Part shown: one piece after another, positions 1,471 through 56,014 of the stretch
How positions within the stretch are numbered: position 1 is the first letter of the stretch
Layout of the letters: each line of letters begins with the position of its first letter
NCBI GenBank assembly: GCA_047495785.1
Contig: JBLDXI010000074.1
Location: 1,240,001-1,304,000 of the forward strand
Origin: Lepidodermella squamata
Taxonomy: Eukaryota; Animalia; Gastrotricha
Reading direction: 5' to 3'
DNA length: 64,000 nt
Program-made: the position numbers and the translations under genes
Notes under the pieces: model-generated
Seen by the model: the letters and a program-made list of their open reading frames with translations, nothing else
Told to the model about the DNA's origin: nothing
The model's database searches: none

Positions 1471-2021
1471 ATGAACAAGTTCCTCGTTGGCACCGTCGTT
1501 TTGGTAAGCATTGTGTCTTTACTTTTGATGCGTTCTAATGTATTTTGCAGGCCGCTTGCATCGCCGTTGTGTCGTCTGCCGCACGCGCTGCGAAGGCCCC
1601 ATCTGCCGCCGTTGGCAAACCGAAGTCTCCCAGTACTTCCGCCCAGAAGCCCCACGCTGCCTCGGGTGTTCAAAAGAAGCTGCATCAGAGCAAAGCTCAG
1701 CGGAAAGCTTTCGTCAAGGATGTCGGCGGTGCCGCGAAGAGCAACCAAGCTGCCTTTGCCAAGAAGATCCAAGCCATGATCAAGGCCAAATCGCTGCGCA
1801 AGTTCGTCGGGAGGTACTACTCGGGCAATGCGGCTGCGATCACCAACGGGATTACTAAGATCGCTAAGGACGAGAAGAAGTTGAAGGCTTTCGTCGCTAA
1901 ACTCGCAAAGGACCCCAAATCGGTCGCCAAAAAGCTGACCAAGATCAAGCGAGCCAATAAGACGAAGGGCAACGCCAAGCCAAAGGCATCGACTGCCAAG
2001 CCGGCCGGCCGTGAGGAGTAA
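1471..2021 (+). CDS. Secreted highly cationic Cys-free Lys/Ala-rich protein, family A copy A1 (exons 1471-1503, 1551-2021)
   Basis: Splicing GTAAGC...TTTTGCAG gives signal peptide MNKFLVGTVVL|AACIAVVSSA. The mature part has 38 K/R versus 6 D/E and ends GREE. Homologous to the repeat unit of 10927-12336. Confidence 0.85.
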
Positions 2022-6376: not shown

Positions 6377-6939
6377 TCTAAAGACAATCATTTCTCTGTC
6401 GATATTTTTTTCTGATTGATAATCACTTTCGAATTCAAAACTGCATGAGTGTCGTAGCATTTGAGCCCGTACTGACAGCACGATGCGCATTAACCTTTGA
6501 ATGAACTTCCTTCAGGGTCATTTCGGAAAAGTCAGTCTTCGTTTCCAGTCATTTTGACTTCATTTGACACGATGGCTCAAATATGGTAAACATCAATTTC
6601 TGGGAAACGCTCGCCAACATTACCAGCCGGAAAGATGGTCTCAAATTTACGCGATCTCTTCCGTGCAATGAGCGGCGACTAAACGTGTCATGCTCAACAC
6701 TTTCGGTGATCGGCCATGCGCGTTATGTTCTGTTTGCATAGCACATAAAACCTTCATCAGCACATAAAACCTACTTCAAATTTCTTTCACAATTTTGCAG
6801 CCTATACTAAATATTTTTATCGGTTTCAATATTTTGGAAAAAAAAATAAAAATGAGCACAATTTAAGGAGGATCATCACTCACTTTTTGGCTGCTATTGT
6901 CGCCATCATACAGCGGTTTTTTGATGTGATCGAAAATCG

Positions 6940-15605: not shown

Positions 15606-16207
15606 CAGTGTTTTCAGAAATTCTTAAAAAAAAATTCCTAAAAATTGAAGATAGGTAAGATTTCAAATGCTGCAAATTAACACTTAGGTTCCTGCGATAT
15701 TTCAAGCGCGTTAATTTTGAGATCTAGTCTGAAAATTTAGAAAATATTATTTTAGAACCTAATCTAATTTCAAGAACGGTGCAAAAATTACGTTTTGGAG
15801 GTCTCAAGGTTCAAGGTCCACATTTTGAGCCGTCTATTTGATTTTAGATAAAAATAATGAAGTCCCATTTGAATTTTCGGAATCTAACCCAGTTGTTTCG
15901 CAAAATTGGTCAATGAGTTAAATTTTCGAAGTGGTAATATCTTTCGAAATCAGGGCTATTCAACTTTTATCTGGTCATTTTGGCAGCTAATTTCAGGATT
16001 AATTTCCTGGAAAGTTCTGCCTCTATCAATACGCGATTCTTGATACAAAAATCCCTCTCTTCTGTGAAACATTGCCACATTTTATAGAACATCACATGAC
16101 TCTTTTAAAGCAATCAATAAAATAATAACATCAATCAATATTCAATTTTAACAAGTAAAGCGACTTGTTCAGCGGTAGAAAATAAACGAGAAATAAGAAA
16201 ATTGCGA

Positions 16208-16860
16208 TCAAGTCGCCGCATTTTCTACGACTTCTACTGATTGTTCGTTTTCCGATTTTGCCGTCGACTCGTTCGACGCTTTTGCCTCCAGCTTTTCGTT
16301 GGGGCGCTTTTTTAGCACAGTATCGTCGTCATCGTCGTCGAAATCCTCGGCTAGCTTCAATTGGCCATTCAAAGCCTGGAGACCAAGTGATTTTTCGCAC
16401 TCGCCAAACGCTTGCGGGTACAGGCGAGAGCATTTCGATTTCAAATTTCGAATACGACGAGTTACGTTGAACAACCGCTCGCGTAATTCGCCGAGCTGAA
16501 CTGTCGCTCTTCGAATATCTTGAACAACGTCAGTCGGCGGAATTCGATCCAAAGCACCGCTGTTGAATGAAAGAACTTGTTGAGGCGCCCCGGGTGGAAG
16601 CAATCGTCGAGAGGAGACCTGAAAACATCGTATTATTCAATTCTTTGTTGTCATAAAACGCAACTTACATCTATAGCTGTGCTGAGCAATGCATTTGTTC
16701 GCTCGAATCTAGCTAACATTCGTTGTTGGACGGCTAACATTTGACTGATTTGACTAGCTGGAATCAATGCTTCCGTGAATGAGGTAGCGAACAGTTGAGA
16801 TGCCGGTAGTTCATCATCGAATATATCCTCCGATCCAAGCTTCTGAACTACACTCGTCAT
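16208..16860 (-). CDS. KXD1: KxDL motif-containing protein 1 (BORC subunit; exons 16860-16669, 16618-16208)
   Basis: QQRMLARFERTNALL and LFNVTRRIRNLKSKCSRLYPQAF resemble the KxDL domain; 50-nt GT-AG intron. Confidence 0.75.
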
Positions 16861-17164
16861 TATTTAAAACACTAGTAACAACAAGACAAACTTGGTTTTG
16901 AAAGAAATCGGGTTTTATTTTTTCACAACTAGAGCTATATAGTATAGTATGCACGGGGTGTCGGCTTTTATTTCTTTCGACTTTAGAGCAGGCAATCAAT
17001 ATTCGGTGACGGAAACCTGGCAGTTCAATCATCAAAAAGGTCATTGTTTTCAAACTACAGTGATCCAAGGAGGTTTCACACAATCATTAGTTGTAGTGTT
17101 TTGGAGATATTTTTATTCATCAAGTTCTTAGTAATTTACGTACTGACAGCCGGTTGACAACTTT

Positions 17165-17590
<426 letters not shown>

Positions 17591-34330: not shown

Positions 34331-35033
34331 TATCTATTTTCTGTTGCGAATAAAAAAACCCTCAGCGTTCAACATTGTGACTTCGGATGGAAAATTAGAA
34401 TGATTCAAAATAAAAAGGGTGCACATAATTATGTGTTACTTTATCCCTATTTGTGCAAAACCTTTTCAAAACTAACCCAAATCCCAATCCTAACCCTAAC
34501 CCTAACCCCAGGAAAACCCCGAATATCATTAGAAGGCAGTATGACTCATTTCGCACCACCAAATCGCGAATGTTGTTCATTTCGATCGAGTAGTCGTGCA
34601 TTTCAACATTGAACGCAGAATAAAAGTCAAAATGCACTACTGTCAAGTGCAAGGCTGAACAATGCAACCCCGCAGCGGGAAACATTTTTCTCCCACCCGC
34701 GTTAGTATTAGCCGGCCTGAAGAATAATATTTCCTATTGCAGTAGATATTGTCTGTTAGCCAGCATCGCATCATCTCATCAAACACCGGTTTCTTGGGTA
34801 AATAAACAGCTAAATTTAATCAAACTCGCTGGCGATGATCGCAAACGTGCAGGATGCCGCTCGCCTACTCCGCCATCAAGTGCATCGGTATCTACGAAAC
34901 ACAAGAGTGCACCTCGTATGCCATACGCTTAACACAGGTTTACTCAGTTGGCGGGGTTTGGCAGGGAGATGCTTATAAAATGGCAAGGCTCCGCAGTATA
35001 ATGCATTCTTTCGTTTAAAATTTTCTTTCAAAT

Positions 35034-35314
35034 ATGAACAAGACCCTCCTTTTCACCCTCGCAGTGGTAGGTTTCCCCCTTACATGAGATCTGATGATAT
35101 TTATGTAAATATATATATTATGTTCAATTAACAGGTTTTCGCCGCTGTGCTAGCTGTATCAGCAGAGGAAGAATCAGCGCGTGGAGGTTCAATGACAGGC
35201 GGCCGTGAGGCTGCTTACGAAGAAGAATCAGCTCGTGGAGGTCATCCAGGTGGCCGTGAGGCTGATTTCGAAGAAGAATCAGCTAGGTCGCCATCGAAGA
35301 GGCCTGCGAAGTAA
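35034..35314 (+). CDS. Secreted multi-peptide precursor, family B copy B1 (exons 35034-35066, 35135-35314)
   Basis: MNKTLLFTLAV|VFAAVLAVSA-EEESAR-GGSMTGG-REAAYEEESAR-GGHPGG-READFEEESAR-SPSKRPAK*; TATAAAA near 34975, AATAAA near 35468. Confidence 0.85.
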
Positions 35315-36489
35315 AATTGAATCTAAATGCGAGCAGCTTTGAAGCACTTGTGTGGAGCCGTCAACTTTTTGCCAGCTTTGATTTGCTTTTATGTGGTCGT
35401 AGTTAAGGTCATGGTATTGCACCCATCAACTTCTCTTGAATTGATTGTCTCATGATGCGGTTATTGGAATAAATGCTTAATGGCACTCATTCGCCAGGCT
35501 TCAGTTTTTAAAATCGAGAATGCGGTGATTGCCGATCGCCACTTTCCCTCTGCTTTTGGATTCGCGAGAAGGAATAGAACTTTAACGCATTTTATAACAC
35601 CTATTCTCGAAAACGCTGCCTCTCGTAAACTTCGACTCGTGATTATTACGCGTTTTCTCGCTTAGAATCAAAACTCGGTGTTCTAACATATATTAGTATT
35701 AATTTTGTATATTTTACAAAGTGCGGCAAAATCGCAGCGATTGACAAGCGATCCCGGGTGGGTACTTCACCTCAATGTATCTCAATGTATCTCTTTTGTT
35801 GGTTTGATCCACCTTAATACATCTAGCACCTCCGCCACGTAAAAAAGTGGCCGCAAGCGAGGAAGTGGGGCAAAGCGGAAACGCGGCAGGCCTGCTAAAG
35901 TGAACAGCAGCACCCACAACAGCACCTAAGATGCGCGGTCAACAGGCGTTGAGCAAACAACTCGCTGATTAAAACTTCTAGTTTCCGATAGGAGTTTCAT
36001 CATCATCTCTGGTATCTCTATTCTCTATGATTGCATCATTTAAAAATTCCCCACGCAATAAATTCTGATAGTATTATTTTCTTATGCACAGTTGATCAAC
36101 ACTTTCCCTCTGCTTTTGGATTCGCGAGAAAGAAGAGAAACGCTTTCGTTTGATATTTTTCCCTTTGCCCTAACATTGGGGTATTTATAACTTGTTCTTG
36201 AAAGAGTTGTGTTCAACGAACGACCTATTAATAAGTACTAAAAGTTAGCGGTATCCTTTCAAAAGCTGCGCATGATTTTTCGATTAGCCGACCGACTATG
36301 GCATATTTACGTCTGATGACACTTGATGCTGGAAACATAGACAAATAATAAGAGACTGGACACTCACGCTTATTTAATACTGCCGAAATCAAAATTTTTT
36401 ATTTTCATCCGCACACTGACTTTGTGTTTTAATTGCGCCTTGAGTTTTCACGATGCAGAGATATGGTTTCACGACCTAGTGCAACTTTT

Positions 36490-38642
36490 CACGCTCTATT
36501 CAACCATATAAATTTTGAAGCTGTATCATAAAAATTTCCTCGAAAATGAGGGCTTTAAAAACTTTGAGAGCCTGCCTTGCAATTTGCCCCATCTCGGATT
36601 CCAGAATGGTACTAATGGTATCAATGCAGTATTTTATGAGCTTTCTTTTGATACCAAAATTATGTGGTGCATACTCGTGATAGAGAGAGAGAGAGATACC
36701 GATTTATTGGTGGTCTGCGTTACATAATTCTTAGTAACATTGCCTTTAAGACACAGAGATATGAATTAATTAACTTCAGTATAGGTGATATTTCTTAATA
36801 ATAAGTATTGGTTATTTATCGTTGGTTGGAATATAGATGGTGGTGAAGAATTCGAATACTGTCTTTGAGGGCCTGTGAAGCGATATCGATGGCTGTGCCG
36901 GCGTTGATTCCATAATCGCGCAGAAGTTTTACGGCTTCTGTTGTCAGGGATCCGCGGGCACCGATATATAGTCCATGTACTTCTATTGAATCTAGGTTGT
37001 ATGCTTCGCAAATAAACTTGCTACATGGCTCGTATATTGCGCGTTTTTCCGCATCGACCAATTCGAATTGGTTTTGCGAAGACTCGCATCTGATAGTTGG
37101 ATCAATAATTATTCCTGTTCGGCTTCCTTTTCGGAGGGCTAGGATATCAAAGCGGCGAGAAGAGCCGTTGCTGGCTACACAATGTCCTTCCTCAGTGACA
37201 TTATATCCCTGGCCGCGCAATTCGCTCGCTATTTTCTGGCGGATTTTGTTATGTCTCGAAGTGATTAGCAACGAGTTGTAGGGGCAGGCGCCAAGGACGT
37301 GAGCAAGAGATCCAATCTCAGCGCCGCATCGACGACACTGGTTTCCGTCCTGACTGACACCTGGTACCCCTCTAACCGGAGCCGTGTTTGTAGACATTTT
37401 GATCGCCATGGTCCATTCAGCAACGCTTAGCCCATTTCTCCGAAAAACCCAATTGTTTGTTTTGGGCACGCATTTGAACTGGGCAACTCCTCTCCCTTTT
37501 TGATCCAAGCTGCACCATGCTTCAAATTCTCGCAGTCGAAGAGTGCTACGTATAATCTTAGCATTCGGAGGAAGATTTTTCTCCGGGTCGAATCGATCAT
37601 CGTTTTCCAATTCCTCATCCAGATTCTGATCAAGCTCATCATTGTTAAGGTCAACATCAAGTTTCGCTAGACATTCTTCCATTTCCTTCTCAAGGTTTCT
37701 GCAGGCCAGTACCGGGGGTTCGCCGTTAACTAACAATTTTCTACAAATATTATATATTTGAAGATAAGCTTCCCAAGTAGCTTTCGGAAGGCCAAGACCA
37801 CGATGTTTACGAGCAGCATAGAAGAAGCTAGTGGGCGTGCTTGTAGGCAAACCGACGCATTCTTTAACGACGCTACGCATAATGACGTCAACGGATTCCA
37901 AAAATGTTTTCCTGATCGCTTTAATTGGCGCCGTTTGAAACGGATAAATAAGCTTTGGCCAGATGAACTGAGTCACAATAGTCAGTTTTTGGTCTGCTAG
38001 TAATAGGAGTGACGAAAAAGTTAAAAAGGCTATTTTTTGTTGCGCGTTTTGATATGTGAGCCGCGACAAGTGAAAACCGTAATTTACGAACAATTTGAGT
38101 TCATTTCATGGTCTACTACAGTTTTTCATGCCGATTTCAAATCTGAAACCCGTTTTTCAATATCTTTTACCGTTCTCAAGATCTAAGCACAATTGAGTGT
38201 GCGCACATTACAAATGCAATTTTTCAGAAGAAGCAAAAAATAAACTCATAGATTTACGAACATATTTCCTTTAGGTATAGCGAATTGCAACACCTCATTC
38301 AGCGGTTTTTATGACCTACTAGGGCAGTTTGAGTCCTAGATTCCGAATTTTGCACTATTAAGAGCCCAATTTCCACCGATCTACCTAAAATTGGATTAAT
38401 AAACCACTTAATCAAATTTGCTTTTTCGTTTTTATTAAACTGTGAAAGCCCATGTAAATACGCACCTCGTGATTTTTGTATCAAAAGAAAGCTCATACAA
38501 TTCTGCATCGATGCCATTAGCACCATTCTGGAATCCGAGATGGGGCAAATTACAAGGCAGGCTCTCAAAGTTTTTAAAGCCCTGATTTCCGAGGAAATTT
38601 TTATGATACAACTTCAAAATTTATATGGTTGAATAGAGCGTG
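36490..38642. mobile_element. DNA element with about 190-bp terminal inverted repeats (CAC...GTG ends) hosting a retrotransposon fragment
   Basis: About 36490-36675 is the reverse complement of about 38457-38642; no clear TSD. Confidence 0.7.
36681..38030 (-). mobile_element. 5'-truncated non-LTR retrotransposon with restriction-like endonuclease (R2/NeSL/HERO/CRE group)
   Basis: RT thumb (GLGL), CCHC knuckle CRRC...HVLGAC, RHN, RFDI...IIIDPTIR...EKRAIY; 3' AATAAA followed by a (TC)n tail. Confidence 0.88.
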
Positions 38643-38839
38643 AGCTACTGCCTTTTATGGTCAAGGCTCGTCCACAGCCGATGAAAACTGTCGTTGCAAC
38701 GCCAGGATATAGTGAGGGCTGATATTTGCAAATTTCCTTAAGAATGTGCTTAAGGAGGAATTTTAAATTGTAAATTCGAATAATTTCGGCAGTATTGCAA
38801 AGGCAAGAGTGTCTAGTCTCTTATTATTTCTCTATGGCT

Positions 38840-39215
38840 GGAAAGAATTTATCTGGGCCATAACGAGACTGCTGATAGTTGCGCAGAGTTGCGCGTCTTA
38901 GGCATTCACTTTGACACGAAGCAGTCGTGGAAGCCCCACATGGACCGTACTCTGAGCGGCTGCGGGCAAAACCTTTCTTGGTAACACATTGTCGTTCGGC
39001 GCCCTGGGCTCTCCTTCCGCTGGCGACGTGCCAGCTATACCTCGCTCTCGTCCGCTCGATCGCCTCTTTCGGATGCGTCGTCTTTTCGTCCGCTGCAAAG
39101 CAACAGTTGTGCCGCCTCGACGTCCTCCAGAATAAGTGCATGCGTGCTATGCTAAAAGTTCGCCTCGCTGACCGTGTTCGCATCACCGAACTTGAGCGGC
39201 GTTGCCGCCTGCCTA
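38840..39215 (+). mobile_element. Degenerate LINE RT C-terminal fragment
   Basis: LYLALVRSIASFGCVVFSSAAKQQLCRLDVLQNKCMR resembles the post-RT region of LINE ORF2. Confidence 0.6.
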
Positions 39216-39224
39216 GCCTTTCAG

Positions 39225-39345
39225 TAAAATTTGTCTAAAGTTTAACTTACTCGGATCCCACTCAAACAGCGTCATATCGGAGTCGAGGCCTGAGTTTTCA
39301 CTTTGAACACTTCCAAAATCGCCATTGCCAACACTCTGGATTGAT
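39225..39345 (-). pseudogene. Rearranged partial RBM42 copy (parts of exon 2 plus the intron 2 donor)
   Basis: Encodes DMTLFEWDPSK, matching about 14690-14745, fused to sequence matching about 14975-15020. Confidence 0.75.
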
Positions 39346-39808
39346 GGCGCTTCAACAAAGAGCGAAATGTCCCGAATCTTGCTTGGCAAAGATCTTGCTG
39401 GACATGAAAATACGCGATATCGCATAACAACGGTCCCCTTCTGACTTATGCCAGTTTAAAATTCAGCTGAATGAAATTGAACGTTCTACTTTCCCGCTTT
39501 AACCCCCCCTCCCTATTCATCCTCCATCTCGGCTTCCCGTCTCGCAGTCTCGTCCGTTAAATAAGATGATTCTCATCTTCTTACATTCAATTCATTAACT
39601 TCATTTTAGCAACACTAAGAAAACGCATCCTAGCGCAGAACGCGGCTGATCCAACAATGGGAAGCTCGCTAGGTTATCGTTTTCGCCACGTTTTTTAGAA
39701 TGTTCACGTGAAATTCACGCCAAGGAGCCTATAAAACTGCGAGCTTGCCGACCGAAATTTCACTTTCGACTTCTCTGGCATCAAACTGATATTTTCTCAC
39801 ACTAGAAA

Positions 39809-39980
39809 ATGAACAAGTTCTTGTCTTGCGCCGTCCTTGTTGTAGGCATTTTGCTGAATCTTAGATGATTGATGCATAGTTCCGTTGCATTTTTAGGCTT
39901 TCGTCGTTGTGCTGTCATCTGCCCACCCGGGTGCTCGTGTTGTCGCGCAAAACTCTCTCGAATGCTACCATTGGTATTGA
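39809..39980 (+). pseudogene. Family A copy A3: promoter and signal peptide intact, helical domain missing (exons 39809-39841, 39897-39980)
   Basis: MNKFLSCAVLV|AFVVVLSSAHPGARVVAQNSLECYHWY*; upstream 39445-39808 and the intron closely match A2. Confidence 0.75.
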
Positions 39981-40579
39981 ATATACATCACAGCTCTACT
40001 GTTTCTTAAAAGTTCTAGCATACTTTTCGGTTGTGAAAAATATCGTTATACACTTTTCTATCGTGCACATTGGGCATTATTATATAGTGTGCACGACGGC
40101 CGTGCACGATGAAAATGTCAGTCTCACTTTTGTCAGGCTTTAAAAATCATTTCGGTCGATTTTAAAAATAACCGGGCAGAATAAACCGGTTAAATTTTAT
40201 ATCAGCATTATCGGGCTAAGGAGGTCTATGTAATGGATCAGATCATTTATTTACAATTTGTCGCGTTTAAAATTTAGCTGTGCACGACGGATCTTGCACG
40301 ACCTAGTAAGGACCAGTAATTAAATCGCCGATAATTACCGCGCCCGTACTCAAACATATATAATATAGGGAATAGTGCGCGCACCTTGATTGAGGTTATT
40401 AGCGCGCGCGGGACGCTGTACTCAAACATGAAACCGTATTTATTACCTTAAAAATCGGTAAAATCAGAAATAATATTTCTTGTTTTGAGATTTTAATTTT
40501 AATTTTTATTGGACGCGCCTCCTTCGTCGGCGCGAGCGCGCTATTTTAATTTCTACCAACTGACCCATCCTTCTCATTT

Positions 40580-40618
40580 CTACATTTTTGATCTATAGCC
40601 ATCAAGGCCGAGAAGCGT
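40580..40618 (-). ncRNA. U2 snRNA 5'-end-like fragment (non-functional)
   Basis: Minus strand ACGCTTCTCGGCCTTGATGGCTATAGATCAAAAATGTAG resembles U2 nt 1-36. Confidence 0.55.
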
Positions 40619-41662
40619 CCAATTGGGTCTGGTTTGTTGCTACTAAAATCGGGAAAATCAGACAAAATATTATTACCTTATTTCGTGTAATTTTTGTTTA
40701 ATTTTTTGTGGACGCGCCTCCTTCGTCGGCGCGAGTAATATTTTTAAATAATTATTGGGAGCGCTCGGCGCATTGTTCTTGCGTATTTGCGGTTTCATTT
40801 TAACTCTTTAATTCAATCTGGGACACGCTCCCTGCGGTCGCGTGTTCGTTTTAAATTGGGTCATTTATTTTCTCTCGTGGCTACCTCATTTTTTAATCTG
40901 GTTTATTTATTGTCTTCAGGGCCATTGCTTGATAATTATAATTGAGATAATAGGTAAAATCAGGAATAATTTTTTTTACTGGACGCGCCCCCCTGCGGTC
41001 GGCGCGCATCCCTGTTTTTTAGGGTCATTTATTGTCTCTTTGGCCGCAAAGAAGCGCGTGCGCAATAATAGTGACCTGGGTCATTTAATTGTGTCAGGTC
41101 AATTATCGGAGCGCGCCTCCCTTCGGTCGGCGCGCACGTGCCATCTTCTGGGTTTCGGTTTTTTACCGGGTTGGGAATGTGACCCAGGTCATGAAATGAT
41201 TACGGGAGCGCGCCTCCCTTTGGTCGGCGCGCATATGCCTTTATACAGGGCTTGAGATTTTATTACAGGTAATGGAATGTGACCTGGGTCACGTTTTTTG
41301 GCAGGGCCGGGCGGACGCGGCAGGGGTCTCATTAATTTTACGCGGCAGCCCTATGGAATCCTAGTGGGCTGCCGCTGCGGCTGTCGTGATCAACAAAAAG
41401 GGGTGTTTTCCTCTATTTTCGGAAAAAGTTAAAATTTTCAAAAAATCGTAGAAAATCAACGGTTTATGACAGGGCAATTTGGAAATCAGATTCCAAGAGA
41501 CAATTTGCGACTGAATATGGAAAAAATTAGCAAGACGTAAGCACACCTCCACAGCGAATAAGCGGCAGGTCTATTGATGTCTTATCAAATGAAAAATGGG
41601 TGTTATTTTCAATAATTGTAATTTTCATATATATTTAAATAAATTTAACCAGAATCAAATGG

Positions 41663-41701
41663 ACGCTTCTCGGCCTTGATGACTATAGATCAAAAGTGTA
41701 G
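41663..41701 (+). ncRNA. U2 snRNA 5'-end-like fragment (non-functional)
   Basis: ACGCTTCTCGGCCTTGATGACTATAGATCAAAAGTGTAG versus U2 ATCGCTTCTCGGCCTTTTGGCTAAGATCAAGTGTAG; similarity stops at the branch-point-pairing region. Confidence 0.6.
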
Positions 41702-44700
41702 AAAGAGAAGGATGGGTCATAAAGGCATCCTAGTTATCTATTTTTCTCGTAATTTGGAATTTGCATATTTTACGGCTATTTATAATGGCCTTGTTCCTTC
41801 GGTCAATCTCTACAAATTTGAAATGAAATGATGAAAAATAGGTGAAAAAATTTCTCTGGCGCCTTGACCTATATTTCGGAATACGCGCGCACTCAGGTAA
41901 TTAGCGTGGCCGACTATATTATTGCTGTTAATTATGGGCTGAATTTTATATAATTTTTATCTCGCTGATTTTTCACTCGATTTTCATCGGGTAAAATTTG
42001 TTAGTCTCCGCTTGGCGAATATTATGTGGCTGCAAATTTTCAATTTTTTTAAATTAAAATTGGGAGAATTATAGCGTTTTGAAATTTTAAAGTACTGGCA
42101 TGCGTGAATGACCCAGTGTGTGTGCACGATGGCCTGGTAACAGTCGTGCACACTAATATTAGGCACTGTGCACGAAAAAAAGTGCGGTAAGGACGTTTTA
42201 TTGTGCGAGTCTTGTGTTCAAACAAATCCGGTGATTGGTGTAAAGCGCCTGACGCGAAGCTCCAAATGAGAGAAAGAAAAGCAATATAACCTCGATTCGA
42301 ACAGTAGTGCAATGATTTACATCCCAAAAATAATCGTGCGCGGACTCCTTAAGATAAATTGGAAACAGCATTTTACTGCTTTTTCCAGTAGACGGTCTCA
42401 AATTTAGAATGCCATGGCATATTGAATGGCGCGGAATCACAAATAAAGTACTTCTACTTAAATTAAATGCCCGATTTGTACGATTTATCTCTGCATGTTG
42501 ATTCTTCTAGTAATAGAAGTGAGAAGGGAATCGCTGGGAATCGTCCGAAATGAAGGACATGTCTCAGCGAAACCCCGCCCGGAATGCCAGGGTCCAAGTC
42601 TGAATAATGCATTTGGCAAGCTGGAATGCATGGCTTCAAATACAACTTACACATTATTCTGATTGAATCATTGAATATAAATCAACAAATAGTCTTTTAG
42701 AGCCCTATATCTGATGTGGTTCAGTGAGGAAATGGACGAGCGATCAAATTAACGTGAAATTAGCTACCCCAGTGTAGAGTGTACACTTGGAGCTATTTCA
42801 TTTTGCAAAATTAAGCATGAAATTTTATTTTTAAAGAGTTGAATTTCAGCTTCGGGTATCCCCAGTTCGTGAGGCATAAAATCGGGAATTGATGTCAATA
42901 TGTCAAGCTTATTCGATTAGTCAATCGACCAAGGAACAAGTCTGATGACACTTGACGCTGTAAAGCAATTAGCTTGGGGCGAATTAGGCGAAGAATGAGC
43001 CGGTTTCGCCGCAAGACAACAAGTCACGCATACGATTCACATACAAGACATAAAATGAAGCTAGGAGTGGCACAGAGTTTCTCCTGCGTTTCACCTATAA
43101 CTTATACAAGATTAGGTATCTATTTTTTTTAAATCGATTCGATTAGCCCATCAATGCAGCCGATGAAATGCAGCTTTCACGTGTTTTTCTTTGTGAGGTG
43201 TTGTTTCTTCTTCAATCATCACCCCTTTGGATTTGTACACTTGGCAGAGTTGAGAAGTTGAACTCGGGAAATAGCTAGTAAACTACTATAGTCGCCTCTA
43301 GATCGAACCAGCTGCCTAAAATGCAAGAAAACGAAATACACAAATTAATACTCGCGCAATTTTCTGTAAAACGTTGGTATAAAGCTTACGCTATTCTTCA
43401 CAATGTACATACTCTAGGTGCTAGGTAATAGTGGAAAAAGGCTTAAGCGTGAATAAATTTGGAGAAAAACTCGATGTAACCATGTGACTGAAATCGGGAA
43501 CGGTATCTCAGGAGGATTGTCAGCTCCAGAAAGTATGCCATCATCCAAAGTGAAACATGTTAATAGCCTAGACGGTCGCTTAATTTCAGCAAGACCCATT
43601 TTATAGCGGAAGCCAAGAGAACCCTTTTTCCAGCGGCTATTAACAATAAAAATAAAGTATTTACTTTTATGGATATTATGCTGAAATTAGATAGAAATTA
43701 GGAATAAATAAATCAGGAACCAAACATACATGTGAAAAGGGAAAAAAGTCGACGCTGAGGTGCGGCGATTTTCATGCCATGGTGTTCCGTGCTTCGGCGG
43801 AAGTCATGAAAATGCTAATCATCACACTCTAAAACTTTACACTACTTTACACTTTACACTGCTCTACACTTTCGTTTTATCGGAAGCCGGTCAAAGCCCG
43901 TGGCAATGTTAGAAAAGCTAAAACTCCAAAAACGCAGTTGACCAATGTGGCGTATGGGACTGTATACTGCCGCGTGTCTTTTTGCATTGACTTTCAAACT
44001 TCCGATATTCCGCATCGACTCCGGCAAAGCCAGTCTCAGCCACGGCGGGCCAGTGTTTTTCAACACCCTGCCAGTCCACTTCCATTGCTCACGTGGATAG
44101 CAGATACAGATACAAAGTCAGCCTTCCAACCCGCGAATATATGGAATCAAGGCCTGCGGGCTACGTCACCGCGAATGACTGTCGACAGCTTGTTTATGAA
44201 CATATACTTTGCTGTCGATTATTTTTATACTATACTTCATTTTATTTGTTGTTGACTGTTGACTGTTGACACGAAACGGAACAAACACATCAGATACTTG
44301 CACCTCGCATCTATTTTAAATCTAAATTATTTTTAGGTCGAATATTTCGAGTACTTACAAAGGGTGGCATTTGAGTGTGGCTTTTCTTTAAAAAAAATGC
44401 CCGGTGGTCCTGTCATTGGGTCACGGGGTGAACTCTTGATGGTTACCTATGTACTTCTGTCCGAGAACGAACCCGTTTTTCGGGGCCAGCCCCATTGCTT
44501 TCAAGAAAAAGACGAATATCCCATCCCGCTTCACGTATCAGAATTCTTGAATTATTTTCGACCACAAATCTCGAGCTACGAACACTATTTTCATATGCGC
44601 CATGCTAAGTTTTTCATTTTATCAAGTTCGAAATATCGAAATTCTCCGAATAGGAAGTCAAAGATCCATTTTCCTCTGCTCTATCTGACTTCAGCTATCA

Positions 44701-45010
44701 AACAATTGGAGAATAAAGACTAGTTCAAATTGTTTGCTAGCATCGCTTCGCTTCACTAAGCGCCGGTGTCTTGGGTAAACACGTCGCTCAGTTTATTCAA
44801 ATTCGCTGGCGATGATCGCAAACGTAGCAGGATGTCACATGATTTCAAGTTATCATTCGTTGAGTGCATCGGTATCTACGAATCACGTGCCTTATACGGT
44901 GAACACAGGTTCAAGGTTTACACAGTTGGCAAAGTTAGCAGAGGCCTAGCTATATAATCGCCAGGCTCCGCTGTACACTTTACGCTGTCTTTTTAAAATT
45001 TCGTTTAAAT

Positions 45011-45278
45011 ATGAGCAAGATCCTCCTTCTCACCCTTGTGGTGGTAGGTTTTCCGCTTTCGTGAGATATGATGATAGTGATACATATTCATTTAAAAGGC
45101 TGTCGCCGCTGTTGTAGCTGAGGCTAACGTCGAGCAAGAAGTAGCTCGTGTAGCTGGTAAACCATCAGGTGGCCGCGAAGCTGTCTACGAACAAGAAGTA
45201 GCTCGAGTAGCTGGTAAACCAGCAGGTGGCCGCGAAGCTGACTACGAACAAGAAGTAGCTCGAAGAAGAAGAGACTAG
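45011..45278 (+). CDS. Secreted multi-peptide precursor, family B copy B2 (exons 45011-45043, 45099-45278)
   Basis: MSKILLLTLVV|AVAAVVAEA-NVEQEVAR-VAGKPSGG-REAVYEQEVAR-VAGKPAGG-READYEQEVAR-RRRD*; 57-bp internal repeat; promoter homologous to B1. Confidence 0.8.
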
Positions 45279-47658
45279 ATCCAAATCTGAGTAATGTGGC
45301 TATGATTGTGGAGCCATCAAACGTTGCCAAACGCTTTTGTACGGTTTATGGTTTATTTGTGTGGTTTTTATTTATCATGCATTTGTAGTTTAGCCTGAAC
45401 TTTATTTTGAATTAGTTGAACGCTTCATGTTGCAGTGGTTCGGATAAATAATTATTGGCATTCATCTTTCAGGCTTTAGTTATGGATTCCGTTAATCAAA
45501 GAAAAGATTTCGCTGCGTTTATGTGACTATTTATATTAGCTTTTCGAGTATTCTATTTAGAGTTCTATTGCCATTAAAGAACTGGCGCTGCGCTAACTAG
45601 ACTTCTACTCCGAAGATAGCACCGACCTTCTTCAAGTTATACTCGTGATATTTCACAATGCTCAGCTGCTGAACCCGCCATTCAAAAATCAAATCCATCA
45701 AGAAATCTGCAATCACGTTCTATACCTATGCCAAGTTGAAAATTAGTTGTTCATGTGTTCACGGTCGAAAATGCAGTTTCATTTAAACAACGTGCAGCAA
45801 TACAAAATACAGAATGAAACCACACACCAGAAGTACAAAGAAAAACGGCATAAAACCGGGAGTTGATTTTGGGGGTCTTGGTCCACAGCTTGGTCCACGG
45901 ATTACCCAAAAAAACGTTTCAATTTAGGAGAACGAATAATACTATTTAAGAACCCGAAATTTGTGACCGTTGGACACCCTAATTCCACCTGTGCTTGGCG
46001 ATGAACGACTATAGTAGCTCGGCAGCTTCGGTAGCTCGGCAGCTATACGGCGCTGCGACCCGACATCCTCTGCCTTCGGCCAGCAATAGCCACTAGATAA
46101 CACTAGAGTGCTTGTGCTAAATATGCCTTACTATGTGCTTTAATCATGAATATGATGCTTGCACGCCAAAAAAGTTTAAGTTTAAGTTTAAGCTCGGCAT
46201 CGCAGCGCGGGGGTGCAAGAGAAGCAGCTGGAAGGGCTGCTGCACACAGGCCGCCGTTTACACGCTCCGCAACCCGTGGCCCAACAGGAAACAGGAACCT
46301 ACTCAGGTACTCAGGACGTCAGGAACCAGGAACAACCTGTAAAAGTGAAGAACAACAAAGAGCGGGTGAGAGAATAGGGTTACCGTTTTACCTGCGGTAA
46401 AAGGCCGGGAGGTCGTGTCGCAGTGAGGGCCTGGGACCGATTGCTAGGCCTCGTTGAAGCAACCAGGCAGCTGGATGAACCGGGCGGTGATCCGGGCGAA
46501 CAGGCGGTCTTCGCAGGCGGCAAGGTCGGCGGCGGCCAAGGCGGGCGGTAGCTGTGCGAGCAGTCCCTTTAGCTCGGCGGCGACGCTAATAAGCGCTGAG
46601 ATTTCTTGACGTTGGGCGGAAAGCACGGCTTGTAGGGACAGAAACTCACTAGTAGCGAGAGTCTGTCCCTGCTAGTTTGATGATTTCAACAAACTGAACG
46701 CTAAATTGATTCGAGATCATCTATGAGGTGAAGCAGTTACGAGGACTAGACTGGAAAACGCGCAATCAAGTTATGGCAAACCATTGTTTGTCTATGGCAG
46801 CCAATTAAGCTTTTGCTCCTTAATCAAAGAACAATCAGTTTCAAAAGAAAGGTTGTTATCAACAGGTAAACGCCTAAAAAATCTCTTGCAACATTAACAG
46901 AATCTAGCTTGGTGTCGGTATTGTAGTAGTCAAAAGTCAAAAGGAACATGACGATTCCCTATTCTAAGCATGCATCGAAGTACGCAGCATGTCTTAGTGT
47001 TAATCATATGACCATTAGCTGCTAACCAAGATCACAAGTTATTGAGGAAAGTTTGATAATGAATCATTTACTTTGACTTGAAACTTTCTGCCTGACAGCT
47101 AATCTTCCAGCCAGTTGAATATATTGCCGCAGACGTTGATATCTTCTAACTTGATCAGTTGATTTATTCGAGCGTGGCCACAAAATTACCTGTGACATGT
47201 GAAAATGTCGAAAATTTACGCTTTACTTAGCCCAGTATTTTCAGTGTTTTTCTAAGTACCCTTGAGTCATCCTTGAGTAAATACCGAAATCACCCAATTT
47301 TTCTCAGCTGTGTCTTGGGCTCATAAAACTCATATAGAAATTATAAATAGCGAGAAAAAAATTATAATTTTTGGGTCAGCTTTATATGTTAGCCAACACC
47401 GCATCGTTTCACTGAGCGCCCTTAAGTAAATACGCCGATGAACAATTCTAAACGATGTCATAGATGGCAGGATGCCAGCAACTTCCATCTATGAGTTGTC
47501 ACAAATCGGGCATTGGCATCCAGATGCTTCTAGCATCATTCGCGTGATCACTGGTTTACACAGTTGGCGGAGCGTTTAGCAGGGACATGCCTATTTAACC
47601 GCAAGGCTCCGAGGTAAAATTTCCATAATCATCTTTCGTTATAAAATTTCGATCAAAT

Positions 47659-48100
47659 ATGAACAAGATCCTCATTCTCACTCTTGTGTTGGTAGGTTTC
47701 CCGCTCAAACGAGATATCGATAGCGGCGCGCCAAAACAACCACTTAGATGATTCATTCGATCGTACTTAAAGTCGCCGAACGTAATGATAAAGTACGATA
47801 GGCCATTTGAGCACTGATTTTTTTCTACTCTCGATCGTACTATCCATATAAAATCTATAAATAGTAAAGTGGTTGTTTTGGCGCGCCGCTAACGATATGT
47901 TGTAATGTTGATTTCTATTAATTGAACAGGCTTTCTCTGCAGTGCTGGCTGTATCAGCACAGGACAACTACACCGAGGTAGCCCGGCACAACTGGCTGCG
48001 TGACTTGGAAAAGGAATCAGCTCGTGGAGGAAAGAAAGATGAAGCTGACTTCGAACAGGAATCAGCTCGTGGAAGAAAGAGAGGTGGCCGTGGGGGGTGA
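47659..48100 (+). CDS. Secreted multi-peptide precursor, family B copy B3 (exons 47659-47691, 47930-48100)
   Basis: MNKILILTLVL|AFSAVLAVSA-QDNYTEVAR-HNWL-RDLEKESAR-GGKK-DEADFEQESAR-GRKRGGRGG*; AATAAA near 48334. Confidence 0.8.
47718..47894. mobile_element. 177-bp MITE in the B3 intron with ATAT target duplication
   Basis: TIR CGATAGCGGCGCGCCAAAACAACCACTT / AAGTGGTTGTTTTGGCGCGCCGCTAACG, ATAT on both sides; the B2 intron has the empty site GAGATATG. Confidence 0.85.
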
Positions 48101-48914
48101 AGGCCGGTGAAGACTAATTACTCCAAATCTGATTAATGCAGCTGCGAAGCTCTGCTTGTGTTGAGCCGATTTAAAGCATATTCTAAGTGGCTGTGAAGCA
48201 TCACTTGTGGAGCCATTAACCTTTAGCCAGCTTTGGGGTCCGGTTTGCCTTTGTATGGTTTGCTTTTGTGTGGTCGCAGTTTATTATCCATCAGCTTTTC
48301 TTGAATTTTTATCTTTCATGATGTGGTTATTGGAATAAATTACTATTTGTCCATGTAGAAAAAAATCTCAACGTTAGACGGTCAGGAAATCATCGTAAAA
48401 TCTGGAGTTGAATTTGGGATCTTTGCCCACGACAAATCAATGTTTTATTGTCGAAAATGTACCAAAAACTACACGTTCGGCATTATTGCATTATTATTGT
48501 AAATTATGAGTGGAGCATTACAGTCATAGAGAATGGAGTGATGATAGTATGAAGCCGGATCATCTCAGCTAAATTTTTCGTTCTTGTCTTGGCTTTTATC
48601 TTTTATTGGTTTGGCTTGAATGCAAGTGTATTGAACTAAACCTACCTACCGGCGTAAGATTTTTCCTTGAACGATTGCCTAATAACAATTACGATTCAGC
48701 GGTATCTTTCCATAAATGTAAGTGGCGCAGGAGATACTTAGCGTTAAAGAAATCTCAGCGAGAGATTATCGACGTCAATTATTAATGAATTTTCTTCAGC
48801 GTAAGCTACTAGCTCATCCAGGAGGCTCTGCAGCTGCTAAGGGCTTTCTGCCAGTAGGACCAAGTCATCGGCGAATAGGATTGCCAAGACTACATATTCA
48901 CCGAAGGTCAAGCC

Positions 48915-49797
48915 AGGGAAAACTTTCATTTTCTCTTGGTTCTCATCAACTTCCTACCTGTCACTCGTACAAGGACCTCGGTCTGATCATCGACGACGGT
49001 CTCACGTTTCGCCCTCATCTTAACACTATTGTTACCAAAGCCTATAACTGCGTTAATGCTATTCTTAGAGCCTTTTATGGCCAGTCACCTTCCGTCCTCG
49101 CCTGGGCTTATCGCGTCTATTCTAGGCCTTTACTTGAATACCTACCTTCTATTTGGTCGCCTTACAAAAAATGTGACAAAGAACTTGTTGAAAATGTACA
49201 AAAATACTTTACCTGTCATGCCTTGGGCTTCTCTTCTCATGATCCTAACCGCCCTTCTCATAAACAAAGGCTTTTAATCCTCAAACTAGACACTTCGGAA
49301 AAGCGCCGAATTCTTTTAGATCTGTCTCTTCTGTACAAAATTTACTACAATGCAGTTGATTCGTCTATTTCTTCTTACATCGAACCCTTATCTACTAAAA
49401 CTCGCGGTCATTGTCATCGTCTTGGATATCGTCGATGTGATGACCGTTATCGCAATGCTACCTCGCCTCTTTTCGCAAATTTTTTTCTTAATCGCGTTCT
49501 TCCCATTTGGAACGAATTACCGTCTCATATTTTTCCTTCTTCTGACAATTTTGATACTAATCTGATATATTTTAAATCAAAAATACGTAAACCTGATTTT
49601 TCTAAACACTGCACTCTTACTAACTAATTTTACTACTTCATGCTCTTCAAAACTACATTCTCCCTCTTCAGAACTGTTTTATATCATTACATTACCCGCT
49701 ATACGGTTCAGAGTTAGTGGCCTGCGTGCCCTTCTGTTTCCTCGAATTTTGTACCATCATTTTTTTTTCATGAATATATTTTTCGAAATAAAATAAC

Positions 49798-49835
<38 letters not shown>
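48915..49835 (+). mobile_element. 5'-truncated CR1-like LINE, 3' end of ORF2 with (AAT)n tail
   Basis: KDLGLIID..LTF, RPLLEY..SIWSPY, ENVQKYFT, FFLNRVLPIWNELP; AATAAA and (AAT)n at about 49787-49835. Confidence 0.85.
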
Positions 49836-50805
49836 GGAAAGGTATGGGATCGTTTATAAAAATCGAAAACAAAAGTGGTGATAATGGGTCACCCTATCGG
49901 ACTCCCACGTTTGACTTTATTGGCTTATCGAATATCGCTGCCCGTGCCACAGCTGTTGGAGGCGTACGGCTAGGCGGCCCCGTTGTTGAGGCTGTGAAAA
50001 GCTGACTGAAAAAGCTAATTATTTCGCTGGCCTCAGGCATATCGACGTTGGTTTCAATGCTCTTCAGGCGATCTAGTTCGTTTGCTAGTTTGAAAATGTC
50101 GGCCGGGTGTGTTTCGATTAATTCAGCGAATTCTATCATGTACTACTATGTACTGGAAGTTACAAGAAAACGATAGCTCATCGCTTTCTCGATCGCAAGA
50201 ACCCTTGCTGTTCGCTAGGTTAATACCTAGGGTCTATTTCATCTCCTCGCAGAAAAATTGATATTTCATTGTGATTTTTCAGTGAGCGGATGAAATACAC
50301 CCCTAGTGTTGATAACAAAATCAAATCAACCAGCCTCACTATATCCCAAACCCCAAAAAATAGTTGAACTTTGACGCTTTATAGCATTTATAAAAAATGG
50401 CGGTGGGTGATTCCATATCATTTTCCTTTATCAACATCACACATTATCTAGAAATTTGTAGACAATTAACGATGGATTCTAGTGCATGTATTTGACGATT
50501 GCCTATTGCCGAATTGAACACCGGCTTATTCGTATGTCAATAAATAATATTGTTATTAGTTCAGCGATGATCATTCTTCATAAACACGTTAGAAAATTAA
50601 GCCGGAGCCGCCTCGCCCCTGTCATCGGGCTATCTATCATCAGTCGAGTGCATCGGTTCTCCGAAACACGCCGGTCGCCTACTCCCGCGCACGTGAAGGC
50701 AGGTTTGCACAGGTGCCGGACATCGGCCGGGAGAAGCCTATAAAATGGCGAGGCTGTGCTTCAACATTTCACAATCATTTTCGTTTATAAAAGTTTCGTT
50801 CAAAT

Positions 50806-51187
50806 ATGACCAAGATCATCCTTCTCACTATTTTGGTGGTAGGTTTACGTGAGATCTGATGATATATATTTTATGTATTCAATATTATTTTAACAGGCTT
50901 TCGCCGCGGTGCTCGCTGTCTCAGCTACTAGCAAGGTCGCAGCGTTGAATAAAGGTTCTAACAAGCACAGCCACGTCGTCCACAACATTGGTCAAGCCAG
51001 AGTTGAGCTTCAAAGAAGCTTCTTCGATCAACAAGGAGCTCATTTTGGTCCAGGGAGTATAGGCTTTCCGGGTCGCAGAGAGGCTGCCTACGAAGAGGAA
51101 TCAGCTCGTGGAGGTTCAATGACAGGTGGCCGTGAGGCTGATTTCGAAGAAGAGGTTGCTCGTAAACAAGGCCCCGGCCGATTCTAA
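50806..51187 (+). CDS. Secreted multi-peptide precursor, family B copy B4 (exons 50806-50838, 50897-51187)
   Basis: MTKIILLTILV|AFAAVLAVSA...VELQR-SFFDQQGAHFGPGSIGFPG-RREAAYEEESAR-GGSMTGG-READFEEEVAR-KQGPGRF*; TATAAAA near 50739. Confidence 0.85.
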
Positions 51188-51599
51188 GTGGCTGCTATCA
51201 ACCATCTATCATCAGTGGAGTTCATCAACCGATGTGAGTTGCTGTGTTGTGCTATCCGTGTGTAGCATGAACTTATGTTTTATCTGGAATTTCGACTTGT
51301 TTGTGTTGCGGTTATCGGTTATTTTAATAAATATTTATTTGCATTCAGCTGTCAGGCATTTGGTTAGGAAACCATCAACCTAAGGATTTCGCGGACTTAC
51401 TATGATTGCTATGATTTCCCGACTTGTTGCACTAGCGTAGAAATATTCCTATAACTTGTTTCGTTTATGATTTCGTCACAGTTAGCGGTTTCCTTTCATA
51501 GTCACGGTCATACTGGAATTTTTATTGGATTCTTTAAGCAAACGTGCAACAGTGTTGAGTACAAAATCACAACAAGATAAAAAGTAAACATTCATAACA

Positions 51600-52782
51600 T
51601 CACGAGTTGATTTGGAGCTTTGCAGCAGCATTTGCGGCCACGTCGTCACGGAACGGCCGCAATACAATGGTTGGTACGAGTTGATTGACGAAAACGTAAC
51701 GACGGATTCGCGTGAAGACGTAGTTGAATATGAGCAAAATCGACACGTATTGAACCCACGCCCATTTCATCAATTCCCAGAAACCACACTGATACGTAAA
51801 AAAAAGACAAACAAATAAATTAAATAATTTCATCCGAAATGTCACGGTAAAACTTATCATAAAAGTTCTTCGATGTAATTCAACGTCAACTTGATAGTAA
51901 AAGGCTGGGTTTGAACTCGACCGGGCGTCCATATTGGCATCGCATTTCCGATGTAAGTCGTAACTAAACGAAGAAATGTTAGGAACTTCACAAAAGATGG
52001 ACAGGTTAAAATTTACCATTTCTCTTAGCGTATTCGTCATAGAAGGAGAAGAGATTGAAACCTTGCGAGAACATGCGTTTGTTACTGAAAATCTCCAAAT
52101 CGTATCTTTTATCAACGCCACGGTGGTAGAGTGGTTGCCGCAGATACAGCCGTAAATCACCATTCAGGAAAAACGCATTTCCGTGCAATGCATTTGAATG
52201 ACCCACGTGAACCAACGTTTCCATTCTCAGCCTCGACTTTTTCTACGATAAATCTGTATAGCTGACGCTTGGGAAAATATTGAGAAAATTACCTTCAAGT
52301 TGTAACTATAAACCATAAACAAATCGAATCCATATATTTCTTCATCGCCTCTCATAGGAACGGTGATTTCTGCCTTGAACCTATCGTTGATGCCATCGTA
52401 ATTCCAATCTTCGTCGTAATACTAAATAATTGCAATGTTTCCATACCGAATTGTTGCACGGAAAATGTACACTTACCGAAACTGATACCGGCCTGAGATA
52501 TTCACGATACAACTCGTTGTACGAGTCGAAAGTGCTCCACACTAGCAAGTTGTCCAACGTGTTTTTAGTGTGCATGAGTAGCACGAATTGATTCTTAAAT
52601 AGCACCGATGGTTGTTCTCTGTATGTTGATTCCTTTTTCCAGAACCCATCACTTCGATATGTGATGATGATAGGAATGACTATGACGATGGCTGTGATGA
52701 AGAGTTGAATAATGGCGGCTCTTGAGCAGTAGTCGGCTTTATGAACAGCGACTTCCGGCCGCTCATAAATTACAGGCGGCAT
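51600..52782 (-). CDS. TMEM231: Transmembrane protein 231 (ciliary transition zone), multi-exon
   Basis: [31 protein letters not shown] and [20 protein letters not shown] are TMEM231 hallmarks; internal exon limits not fully resolved. Confidence 0.9.
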
Positions 52783-55285: not shown

Positions 55286-56014
55286 ATGGCTAGTTTAAGT
55301 AACGTATCACTGTTAAACCAGCAAGAAGCAACAAATATAGATGTCGAGTTGTTTTCCGATTATGGATTCAGTGTCGATCAGCTTATGGAACTTGCTGGAT
55401 TAGCTTGTGCTGTTGCTGTTCGCAGATCTTACGAAGACCGTTTAAACAGTAACGGTAACATTCTTGTTATTTGCGGGCCGGGTAACAACGGTGGCGATGG
55501 CTTAGTCTGCGCGCGACATCTCGCTATGTTTGGCTACAAACCATCAATTCTCTATCCGAAGCGTCAGTCGCCAGAGAAGGACAAAACCGGACTATTCGGT
55601 CGATTGGTAAAACAAATGAACGGGATGGAGATTCCTTTGATTGATAAATTACCTGATAACTTATCGAATTACTCAGTTATTATCGACGCAATATTTGGAT
55701 TTTCATTCCGGCCGCCCGTTATTCAGCCCTTTAAAGACATTTTGACGTCGCTGGCCGAGATCAAGGACATTCCTTTAGCAAGTATTGACATTCCCAGTGG
55801 CTGGGACGTTGAGAAAGGCCCGCCAACGGACGATAATCCTGTGATTTACCCGGACTGCTTGATTTCCCTGACTGCGCCCAAGCTTTGCGCGAAATTTTTC
55901 ACTGGAAAGTATCATTGGCTGGGTGGAAGATTTGTCCCACCACCTCTGAAGGCGAAGTACCACCTGAAATTACCGAATTACGAAAAGGACGATGGCGTTT
56001 ACAGACTTCAATGA
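55286..56014 (+). CDS. NAXE: NAD(P)H-hydrate epimerase (YjeF_N)
   Basis: [53 protein letters not shown]; a mitochondrial-targeting extension upstream of 55286 is possible. Confidence 0.95.

Follow-up and report, generated by a model that had tools for sequence, protein, structure and literature searches.

The closest described counterparts of the genes treated here are the complex peptide precursors of spiders. As the available parts of PMC7889660 and PMC8290080 describe them, these precursors carry anionic linkers that run from an Arg with Glu at positions +1 to +3 (the inverted processing quadruplet motif, iPQM) to an Arg with Glu at positions -2 to -4 (the processing quadruplet motif, PQM); the linkers are specific to the transcript family, measure 11–13 residues in Cupiennius and are often copies of the propeptide end. 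During maturation the Arg is then trimmed and Gly becomes an amide (PMC6832493, section 2.6), and the commonest propeptide PQM is given as EEAR in the portions seen of PMC7889660, PMC8290080 and PMC6832493. In the same portion of PMC6832493, PQM-type maturation is presented as an exception among venomous animals, with unambiguous PQMs rare outside spiders. In this work we have analysed a stretch of 64,000 nucleotides from Lepidodermella squamata (contig JBLDXI010000074.1, positions 1,240,001 to 1,304,000; hereafter the window), in which four related genes, B1 to B4, lie on the forward strand between positions 35034 and 51187. We propose, with a confidence that is about even, that they encode small predicted secreted precursors which would be cut after Arg at both ends of acidic linkers, yielding short, mostly amidated, gland-secreted signals or effectors.

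Four predicted precursor genes and their transcripts

A first-pass annotation, made from the sequence, had described a cluster of four related genes, and all four were recovered in place, with frames open to the stop codon and lengths of 70, 70, 67 and 107 codons for B1 to B4 respectively. Each begins with an exon of 33 nt (11 codons), followed by a phase 0 intron of the form GTAGGT..AG (68, 55, 238 and 58 nt in B1, B2, B3 and B4), and each has a TATA box 60–67 nt upstream of its ATG; a polyadenylation signal AATAAA lies 3' of B1, B3 and B4, and a GATAAA variant 3' of B2. All four proteins have a predicted signal peptide, with a 12-residue hydrophobic core (mean Kyte-Doolittle value 2.8–3.1) and small residues at -3/-1, and their mature regions contain no Cys. 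Since the genes are 58–71% identical over the upstream 260 nt and 54–68% identical in their 3' regions, they are paralogs of moderate age; all four are intact. Their features are as follows.

34974–34980, forward strand: B1 TATA box, inside an upstream region of about 300 nt common to B1–B4
35034–35066, forward strand: B1 exon 1, first half of the predicted signal peptide
35135–35314, forward strand: B1 exon 2, with signal end, short propeptide (PQM half only), peptides, units, basic tail and stop; GGSMTG-G-R at 35183–35206, unit at 35207–35236, GGHPG-G-R at 35237–35257, second unit at 35258–35287, basic tail at 35288–35311
35468–35473, forward strand: B1 AATAAA polyadenylation signal
44951–44957, forward strand: B2 TATA box
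45011–45043, forward strand: B2 exon 1
45099–45278, forward strand: B2 exon 2, with units at 45120–45149, 45177–45206 and 45234–45263, VAGKPSG-G-R from 45150, VAGKPAG-G-R from 45207 and an R-R-R-D tail
47592–47598, forward strand: B3 TATA-like box (TATTTAA)
47659–47691, forward strand: B3 exon 1
47709–47903, no strand: insertion in the B3 intron resembling a miniature inverted-repeat transposable element (MITE), with 37-nt inverted arms and very high DNA depth in its bin
47930–48100, forward strand: B3 exon 2, with two degenerate units, HNWL at 47987–47998, a K-K junction, a full unit at 48041–48070 and a Gly/Arg-rich tail with a G-R-K-R site
48334–48339, forward strand: B3 AATAAA
50739–50745, forward strand: B4 TATA box
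50806–50838, forward strand: B4 exon 1
50897–51187, forward strand: B4 exon 2, with a His-rich basic pro-segment ending in E-L-Q-R, an 18-residue aromatic peptide at 51017–51070 followed by G-R-R, a unit at 51080–51109, GGSMTG-G-R from 51110, a unit at 51134–51163 and the tail KQGPGRF
51326–51331, forward strand: B4 AATAAA

Conserved blocks, one about 40 nt and one about 90 nt before the TATA box, are found in all four promoter regions (34740–35075, 44715–45052, 47375–47700 and 50520–50847) and may be shared gland-specific regulatory sites. The pro-segment of B4 (50927–51004, forward strand) is basic and His-rich, whereas that of B1–B3 is acidic, and may itself be a product.

Transcription, whose absence the first-pass annotation had named as a sign of error, is evidenced for B1 and for a spliced member of the family. 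Three sequencing runs were available, none of them recorded as RNA; one, X1, is a DNA run, and another, X2, was taken as RNA from splicing and behaves as such, one of its contigs joining 52242 to 52293 and so skipping the 50-nt GT..AG intron of TMEM231. An X2 contig matches B1 at 35162–35464 with no differences and ends 4 nt before AATAAA. X2 cover is present in the bins of all four genes, the bin of B3 also containing a repeat; the lack of cover in the bin of the B3 3' region (48082–48715) does not show that the gene is silent, and the genes cannot be ordered by contig depth. Another X2 contig shows, at the predicted junction, a B3-like exon 1 spliced to a B1-like exon 2, and therefore a member of the family is spliced as modelled, a conclusion that holds for the family and not for each gene. 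X1 joints with other intron letters, together with a loose X2 end behind the signal peptide, point to further paralogs or alleles outside the window. An X1 contig also joins across the MITE-like element, so that an allele or paralog without it exists.

Conservation of the acidic units and of the peptides between them

Behind their signal peptides B1–B4 contain 11 acidic units, seven of which are complete copies of the decapeptide E-A-x-[YF]-E-[EQ]-E-[SV]-A-R. A search of all six reading frames of the window found this pattern seven times, always within B1–B4, and 40 shuffled windows did not contain it once; for its half-motif E-[SV]-A-R there were 16 matches in the window against 2.1 expected, 11 of them being in B1–B4. 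The 11-residue spacer consensus with a leading R, as first described, fits six of the seven decapeptide copies, but a copy in B3 has D in that place. Within E-[SV]-A-R, the E, A and R do not vary among the 11 units, and the closing Arg is preserved through four codons (CGT, CGA, CGG and AGG), while the N-terminal half of the unit, including its aromatic residue, decays in four (the first unit of B1, B2 and B3 and the second of B3), the first B1 unit being reduced to its PQM half; the constraint therefore appears to be centred on the putative cut site. The seven full decapeptides are apparently under purifying selection, as the pooled inter-gene ratio of nonsynonymous to synonymous differences per site (pN/pS) is 0.137/0.496 = 0.28 over 18 inter-gene pairs that are not independent of each other. 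Changes of length from repeat to repeat are confined to the peptide segments, with none in the seven full units. In three of the four genes (B1–B3) the propeptide that follows the signal also closes with E-[SV]-A-R, and in B4 it closes with E-L-Q-R.

Could the acidic decapeptides themselves be the active product? Both Arg sites would then be cut, the decapeptides would act, for example, as sulfotyrosine peptides or as counter-ions of the cationic helical proteins encoded nearby (family A, see below), and the Gly-rich pieces would be disposable. For this it can be said that no part other than the decapeptide is common to all four genes, that B2 has retained a complete last unit ahead of R-R-R-D, and that the last unit of B3 is followed by a classical amidation site, G-R-K-R. 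However, GGSMTG is unchanged between B1 and B4, and the amidation Gly stands on short peptides at six junctions and on a decapeptide at one. Of the readings weighed here this is the one in which we place least credence.

The short peptides that the first-pass annotation had listed (GGSMTG, GGHPG, SPSKRPAK, VAGKPSG, VAGKPAG, HNWL, GRKRGG, KQGPGRF and the B4 peptide) are all present in the sequences. The predicted products have 4–9 residues, except for one 18-mer; the predicted amides have 5–7 residues or, in B4, are the aromatic 18-mer, and carry 0–1 Lys and no Arg. A Gly suited to amidation, which had been predicted before the basic residue, is indeed found at all six R-E-A junctions, but at no B3 junction before R|E/D. 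The alternation of peptides and spacers is also less uniform than had been described, since the second junction of B3 reads K-K-D-E-A and not G-R-E-A, and in B2 the last spacer is followed by R-R-R-D at the end of the protein. Over a block of 14 codons around GGSMTG, B1 and B4 differ by four synonymous changes and no replacement, in contrast to identities of 67% in the promoter and 59% in the 3' region of the same two genes, and this conservation suggests that the short segments matter.

Another possibility is that there is no programmed cutting, and that the proteins are secreted whole, as disordered block polyampholytes in which acidic helices alternate with Gly-basic segments, and serve together with family A as a glue, coat or cement. 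In its favour, blocks of opposite charge alternate in the mature regions, which end in basic tails and are close to neutral as a whole, B3 no longer has one iPQM Arg or the Gly-Arg signals, exon 1 is common to B and family A, and the model of B4 has no confident fold (predicted local distance difference test, pLDDT, 54; predicted template modelling score, pTM, 0.20; alignment of four rows). Against this, neither the Gly before the basic residue or residues at all six R-E-A junctions nor the Arg kept through several codons has an evident role in an uncut protein, and the B4 18-mer is framed by E-L-Q-R and G-R-R. We consider an uncut product improbable.

Processing of the predicted precursors

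Our preferred reading is that B1–B4 are convergent, spider-type complex precursors of gland-secreted peptides, a reading that we regard as the best of those considered and as about as likely to be right as wrong. Signal peptidase would cut after residue 18–21. An Arg-specific protease reading Glu at P4 would then cut E-[SV]-A-R|, as the spider PQM protease does, although it would have been recruited independently, and G-R|E would be cut by the same enzyme or by a convertase. A carboxypeptidase would trim the Arg and PAM would turn the Gly into an amide, the end products being the amides of GGSMTG, GGHPG, VAGKPSG, VAGKPAG and the 18-mer, plus unamidated basic tails. The calculated neutral monoisotopic masses of these five amides are, in the same order, 507.21, 422.20, 613.35, 597.36 and 1893.88. 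The linkers may have originated by tandem duplication of the propeptide. An exocrine duct, or the space outside the body, would be where the products act, by way of receptors or metal binding and not by membrane lysis; lysis of the spider type is excluded for the predicted peptides, which are too short, of low charge and not amphipathic, and receptor-directed signalling is the most likely mode of action. Gly-Gly-His is the simplest amino-terminal copper- and nickel-binding (ATCUN) motif, according to the part of PMC11638278 that was available, and GGHPG-amide, the one peptide of this kind here, starts with it and would be a candidate for ATCUN-type copper binding if A-R is cut.

When the mature regions of B1–B4 were compared with 20,000 shuffles of themselves, seven iPQM...PQM linkers were found against 2.1 in the shuffles, six of them being 11 residues long from Arg to Arg; one B3 junction has no opening Arg. 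Glu at P4 of an Arg occurs 12 times against 4.3, G-R-[ED] six times against 0.95, and an Arg that is both PQM and iPQM never, against 4.3.

The chief alternative is ordinary convertase processing, in which only the G-R|E and dibasic sites would be cut to give amidated peptides of 15–17 residues, with an acidic, possibly Tyr-sulfated, head and a variable tail, forming a lineage-specific neuropeptide or hormone family. Convertases follow the rule that a second basic residue lies nearby (in the available text of PMC6756747). Five of the seven R|E/D sites fit this rule, compared with none of the 11 E-[SV]-A-R sites, where no helper basic residue stands at P2, P4, P6 or P8. A new enzyme is unnecessary for this alternative, which also agrees with the selection on the entire decapeptide and with the ordinary dibasic or multibasic sites present after the last unit in all four genes (K-R four residues on in B1, R-R-R in B2, G-R-K-R in B3 and R-K in B4). 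On the other hand, both GGSMTG-G-R sites are without the helper residue; the acidic aromatic head decays in the first unit of B1–B3 and in the second of B3, while E-[SV]-A-R never does; and neuropeptide genes would not usually be expected in a tandem cluster whose exon 1 recurs in genes for cationic helical proteins. We regard convertase processing as possible but doubtful.

Cutting at both ends of the linkers is favoured over it because E-[SV]-A-R is the sole invariant part in units of which 4/11 have lost the acidic aromatic head, because what is left of the first B1 unit is the PQM half, and because the two GGSMTG-G-R sites would demand cutting at a single Arg in any case.

Several observations weigh against cutting at both ends. 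In the shuffles described above, 21 of the 29 Arg residues meet a loose PQM/iPQM definition against 18.3 (p = 0.20), and as the loose motif is at chance level, only ordering and conservation count as evidence. The PQM/iPQM-like code that the first-pass annotation had claimed is thus sustained in part: the linkers agree with the published definition, and their order and conservation go beyond chance, but the bare motif match does not. Gene by gene, the number of linkers reaches p < 0.05 only in B4 and not in B1–B3, and the units descend from one ancestral repeat, so that pooled p-values count one event several times. B3, whose junctions have lost an iPQM Arg and every amidation Gly, is the poorest fit to the precursor scheme, and the identity of GGSMTG between B1 and B4 could be due to gene conversion. 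Because none of the E-[SV]-A-R sites follows the convertase rule, the tiny peptides need a special, non-convertase enzyme, and the 64-kb window was found to contain no catalytic motif of either trypsin-like or convertase type; two of these sites, in B2, have Val at P1'. The ordinary sites after the last units count here as well, and the intact last linker of B2 would release only R-R-R-D. The neighbours of B4 in the Atlas are mostly arthropod neuropeptide precursors, all below 0.9, and lean, if anything, towards a neuropeptide. Finally, the cleavage products are predictions from sequence alone.

Relatives, genomic setting and significance

In their layout the B genes follow the complex precursors of spiders (cupiennins, latarcins, lycotoxins): a signal, a propeptide ending in a Glu-containing quadruplet with Arg, anionic linkers from Arg to Arg and an amidation Gly, with a linker that resembles the propeptide end, the same motif being used in both places in B1–B3. 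Unlike them, the B precursors have only 67–107 residues and no sequence homology to the spider proteins that the searches could find, and their predicted products, of 4–9 residues (one of 18), contrast with the cationic, mostly 19–28-residue peptides of lycosids (PMC8290080, in the part available), none of them showing the cationic, helical, membrane-active character of the spider peptides. Descent from spider venom genes found no support either, as no homolog was recovered and the NAXE protein of the window falls outside the arachnid rows in both of the trees described below. The B genes, as read here, resemble a spider complex precursor in layout and are not members of that family. Other complex toxin or antimicrobial precursors (Bombina toad, Urticina sea anemone, centipedes and honey bee, in the available part of PMC6832493) likewise hold several peptides each; they were matched by description only.

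No known neuropeptide family had been recognised in these peptides, and the sequence, Pfam and literature searches made produced no match, the Atlas leads being all below 0.9. With B4 exon 2 as query against 5.8 billion proteins there were three candidates, none at E <= 1; Pfam gave no match at the curated cut-off for the B genes (two of E about 0.1 on B2); PDB sequences gave a single match, of E 1.1; and a metagenome scan yielded 410 pattern matches, none of which was confirmed. Such searches are weak on sequences that are short and of biased composition, and the databases do not include the proteins of the host itself. A profile of the four B exons retrieved one match among 1.84 billion representatives (E 6e-4), which we rejected because the protein, of coiled-coil repeats, is unrelated and has neither a signal nor linkers, and all 21 matches of a DNA pattern scan were dismissed as chance, being single copies in sequence of 55–75% GC without the repeat layout. 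In the literature within reach, which excluded most subscription papers and supplements, we found no description of the B peptides or of PQM-type precursors in nematodes, PMC13311285 contained nothing to the point, and six B peptide strings led to no relevant paper by title or abstract start. The B family is thus apparently new, no homolog or description having been located, although its layout is known from the spider precursors.

Two families of nematode peptides are nearest in form. Like the FLP and NLP precursors, B1–B4 are short secreted multi-peptide precursors with an amidation Gly; nematode neuropeptide catalogues, however, identify peptides by flanking dibasic sites (PMC9881375, as far as available), a definition that the B genes appear not to fit as a whole, as most of their sites are a single Arg, with convertase-type sites at five of the seven R|E/D positions and after the last units. 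No Pfam or sequence match was found. In C. elegans the genes for glycine-rich secreted peptides (GRSPs) form tandem paralog clusters. Like GRSPs such as C. elegans NLP-31, the B proteins are of 67–107 aa, with a predicted signal peptide and Gly-rich segments. The GRSP criteria, as given in the accessible part of PMC10506718, are a length of at most 200 aa, a signal peptide and over 17% Gly in the mature region, whereas the mature Gly of B1–B4 is 16.3, 11.5, 15.2 and 15.1%, under that 17%, and acidic linkers lie outside the definition.

Apparent relatives of the B genes within the window are those of family A, as follows.

1471–2021, forward strand: A1, a Lys/Ala-rich secreted-type gene with the B-like exon-1 layout, outside the B cluster
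10927–12336, forward strand: A2, four near-identical tandem 98-aa helical repeats behind a B-like exon-1 layout, outside the B cluster
39809–39980, forward strand: A3, a short or truncated family-A-type gene of 39 codons with the same TATA box, exon 1 and intron; it has no acidic units and is not a B gene

The promoter and 3' flank of A3 are also those of family A, and the gene is either a deleted copy or the source of a secreted peptide of very small size. At the A3 junction, one X2 contig corresponds to a spliced transcript of A type whose letters differ. The pattern of ATG, 30 nt and GTA[AG]G with an upstream TATA box occurs seven times in the 64 kb, in B1–B4, A1 (1471), A2 (10927) and A3 (39809), and twice more without TATA. 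Exon 1 of A and B genes is identical at 15–22 of 30 nt, and the two families look like one secreted superfamily; the shared exon suggests a common origin rather than a binding partnership, and no finding speaks directly for the alternative of the first-pass annotation, in which the spacers are the product and complex with family A. A1 and A2 encode domains that are rich in Lys and Ala and helical, and the family A model is helical (pLDDT 82). No homolog of family A was recovered among 141 candidates, nor any Atlas match, and a fold search with the model gave none either (best Foldseek E 3.7; Z at most 3.9). Pfam matches on A2 were rejected because the repeats inflate them, the top ones lacking any stretch that passed.

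In the secretomes of glands and of defence, such as toxin and antimicrobial gene families, tandem arrays typically combine a conserved signal exon with cargoes that differ widely, and it is mainly because the B genes share their signal exon with so different a cargo in a tandem array that we favour an exocrine over a neuronal role. That the cluster is tandem, TATA-driven and lineage-restricted, with no neuropeptide family match, was also counted for it. A bolder version, that the host independently evolved the spider venom maturation code for combinatorial tiny gland peptides, a Gly-Gly-His pentapeptide amide of ATCUN type among them, from a superfamily that also yields family A, and has an undescribed venom-like or pheromone secretome with its own protease, is one that we judge rather unlikely.

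The rest of the window is that of a compact animal genome with short introns, and contains NAXE, TMEM231, ATP synthase c, a myosin head, an Ig/FN3 receptor and transposon remnants. The best matches of NAXE are 53–60% identical, with nematodes leading. In a quick tree of 35 of the 122 rows the query groups with all eight named nematodes and two further rows (Shimodaira-Hasegawa-like approximate likelihood ratio test, SH-aLRT, 92; not starred). A starred 'nematode' clade in a 121-row quick tree was discounted, as two of its rows form a pair, one member of which groups with a ctenophore protein, and Plectus falls outside it; long-branch attraction is possible in these trees. By itself, and with weak support, this single gene would place the host probably among the nematodes, in a lineage that has no annotated relatives nearby. 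NAXE (55286–56014, forward strand) is followed about 96 nt later by the myosin gene (from 56111, forward strand) in an operon-like manner, as are an RRM protein, a KxDL protein and ATP synthase c, closely spaced on the same strand at 13021–17590 (reverse strand). Nematode operons consist of closely spaced genes on the same strand. Between B1 and A3, a 429-codon frame at 36816–38105 (reverse strand) lies in an inverted-repeat element; it has no Pfam match and reads like what we take to be the reverse transcriptase end and restriction-like endonuclease of an R2/NeSL-type retrotransposon. Between A1 and A2 are an ANF-receptor-domain gene followed by membrane-spanning exons (3478–6377, reverse strand), in appearance a GABA-B-like G protein-coupled receptor, and a P-element/THAP9-type transposase frame with three TNP-like Pfam domains (6940–8301, reverse strand).

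What would these precursors mean for the biology of peptide processing? If only the G-R|E sites are cut, B1–B4 would represent a new lineage-specific peptide family with ordinary processing, which is much less consequential. If both ends of the linkers are cut, the system of iPQM...PQM linkers in an animal other than a spider would be a clear case of convergence in a protease code, and pipelines that catalogue nematode peptides by dibasic sites, as described in the part of PMC9881375 that was available, would miss a class of products.

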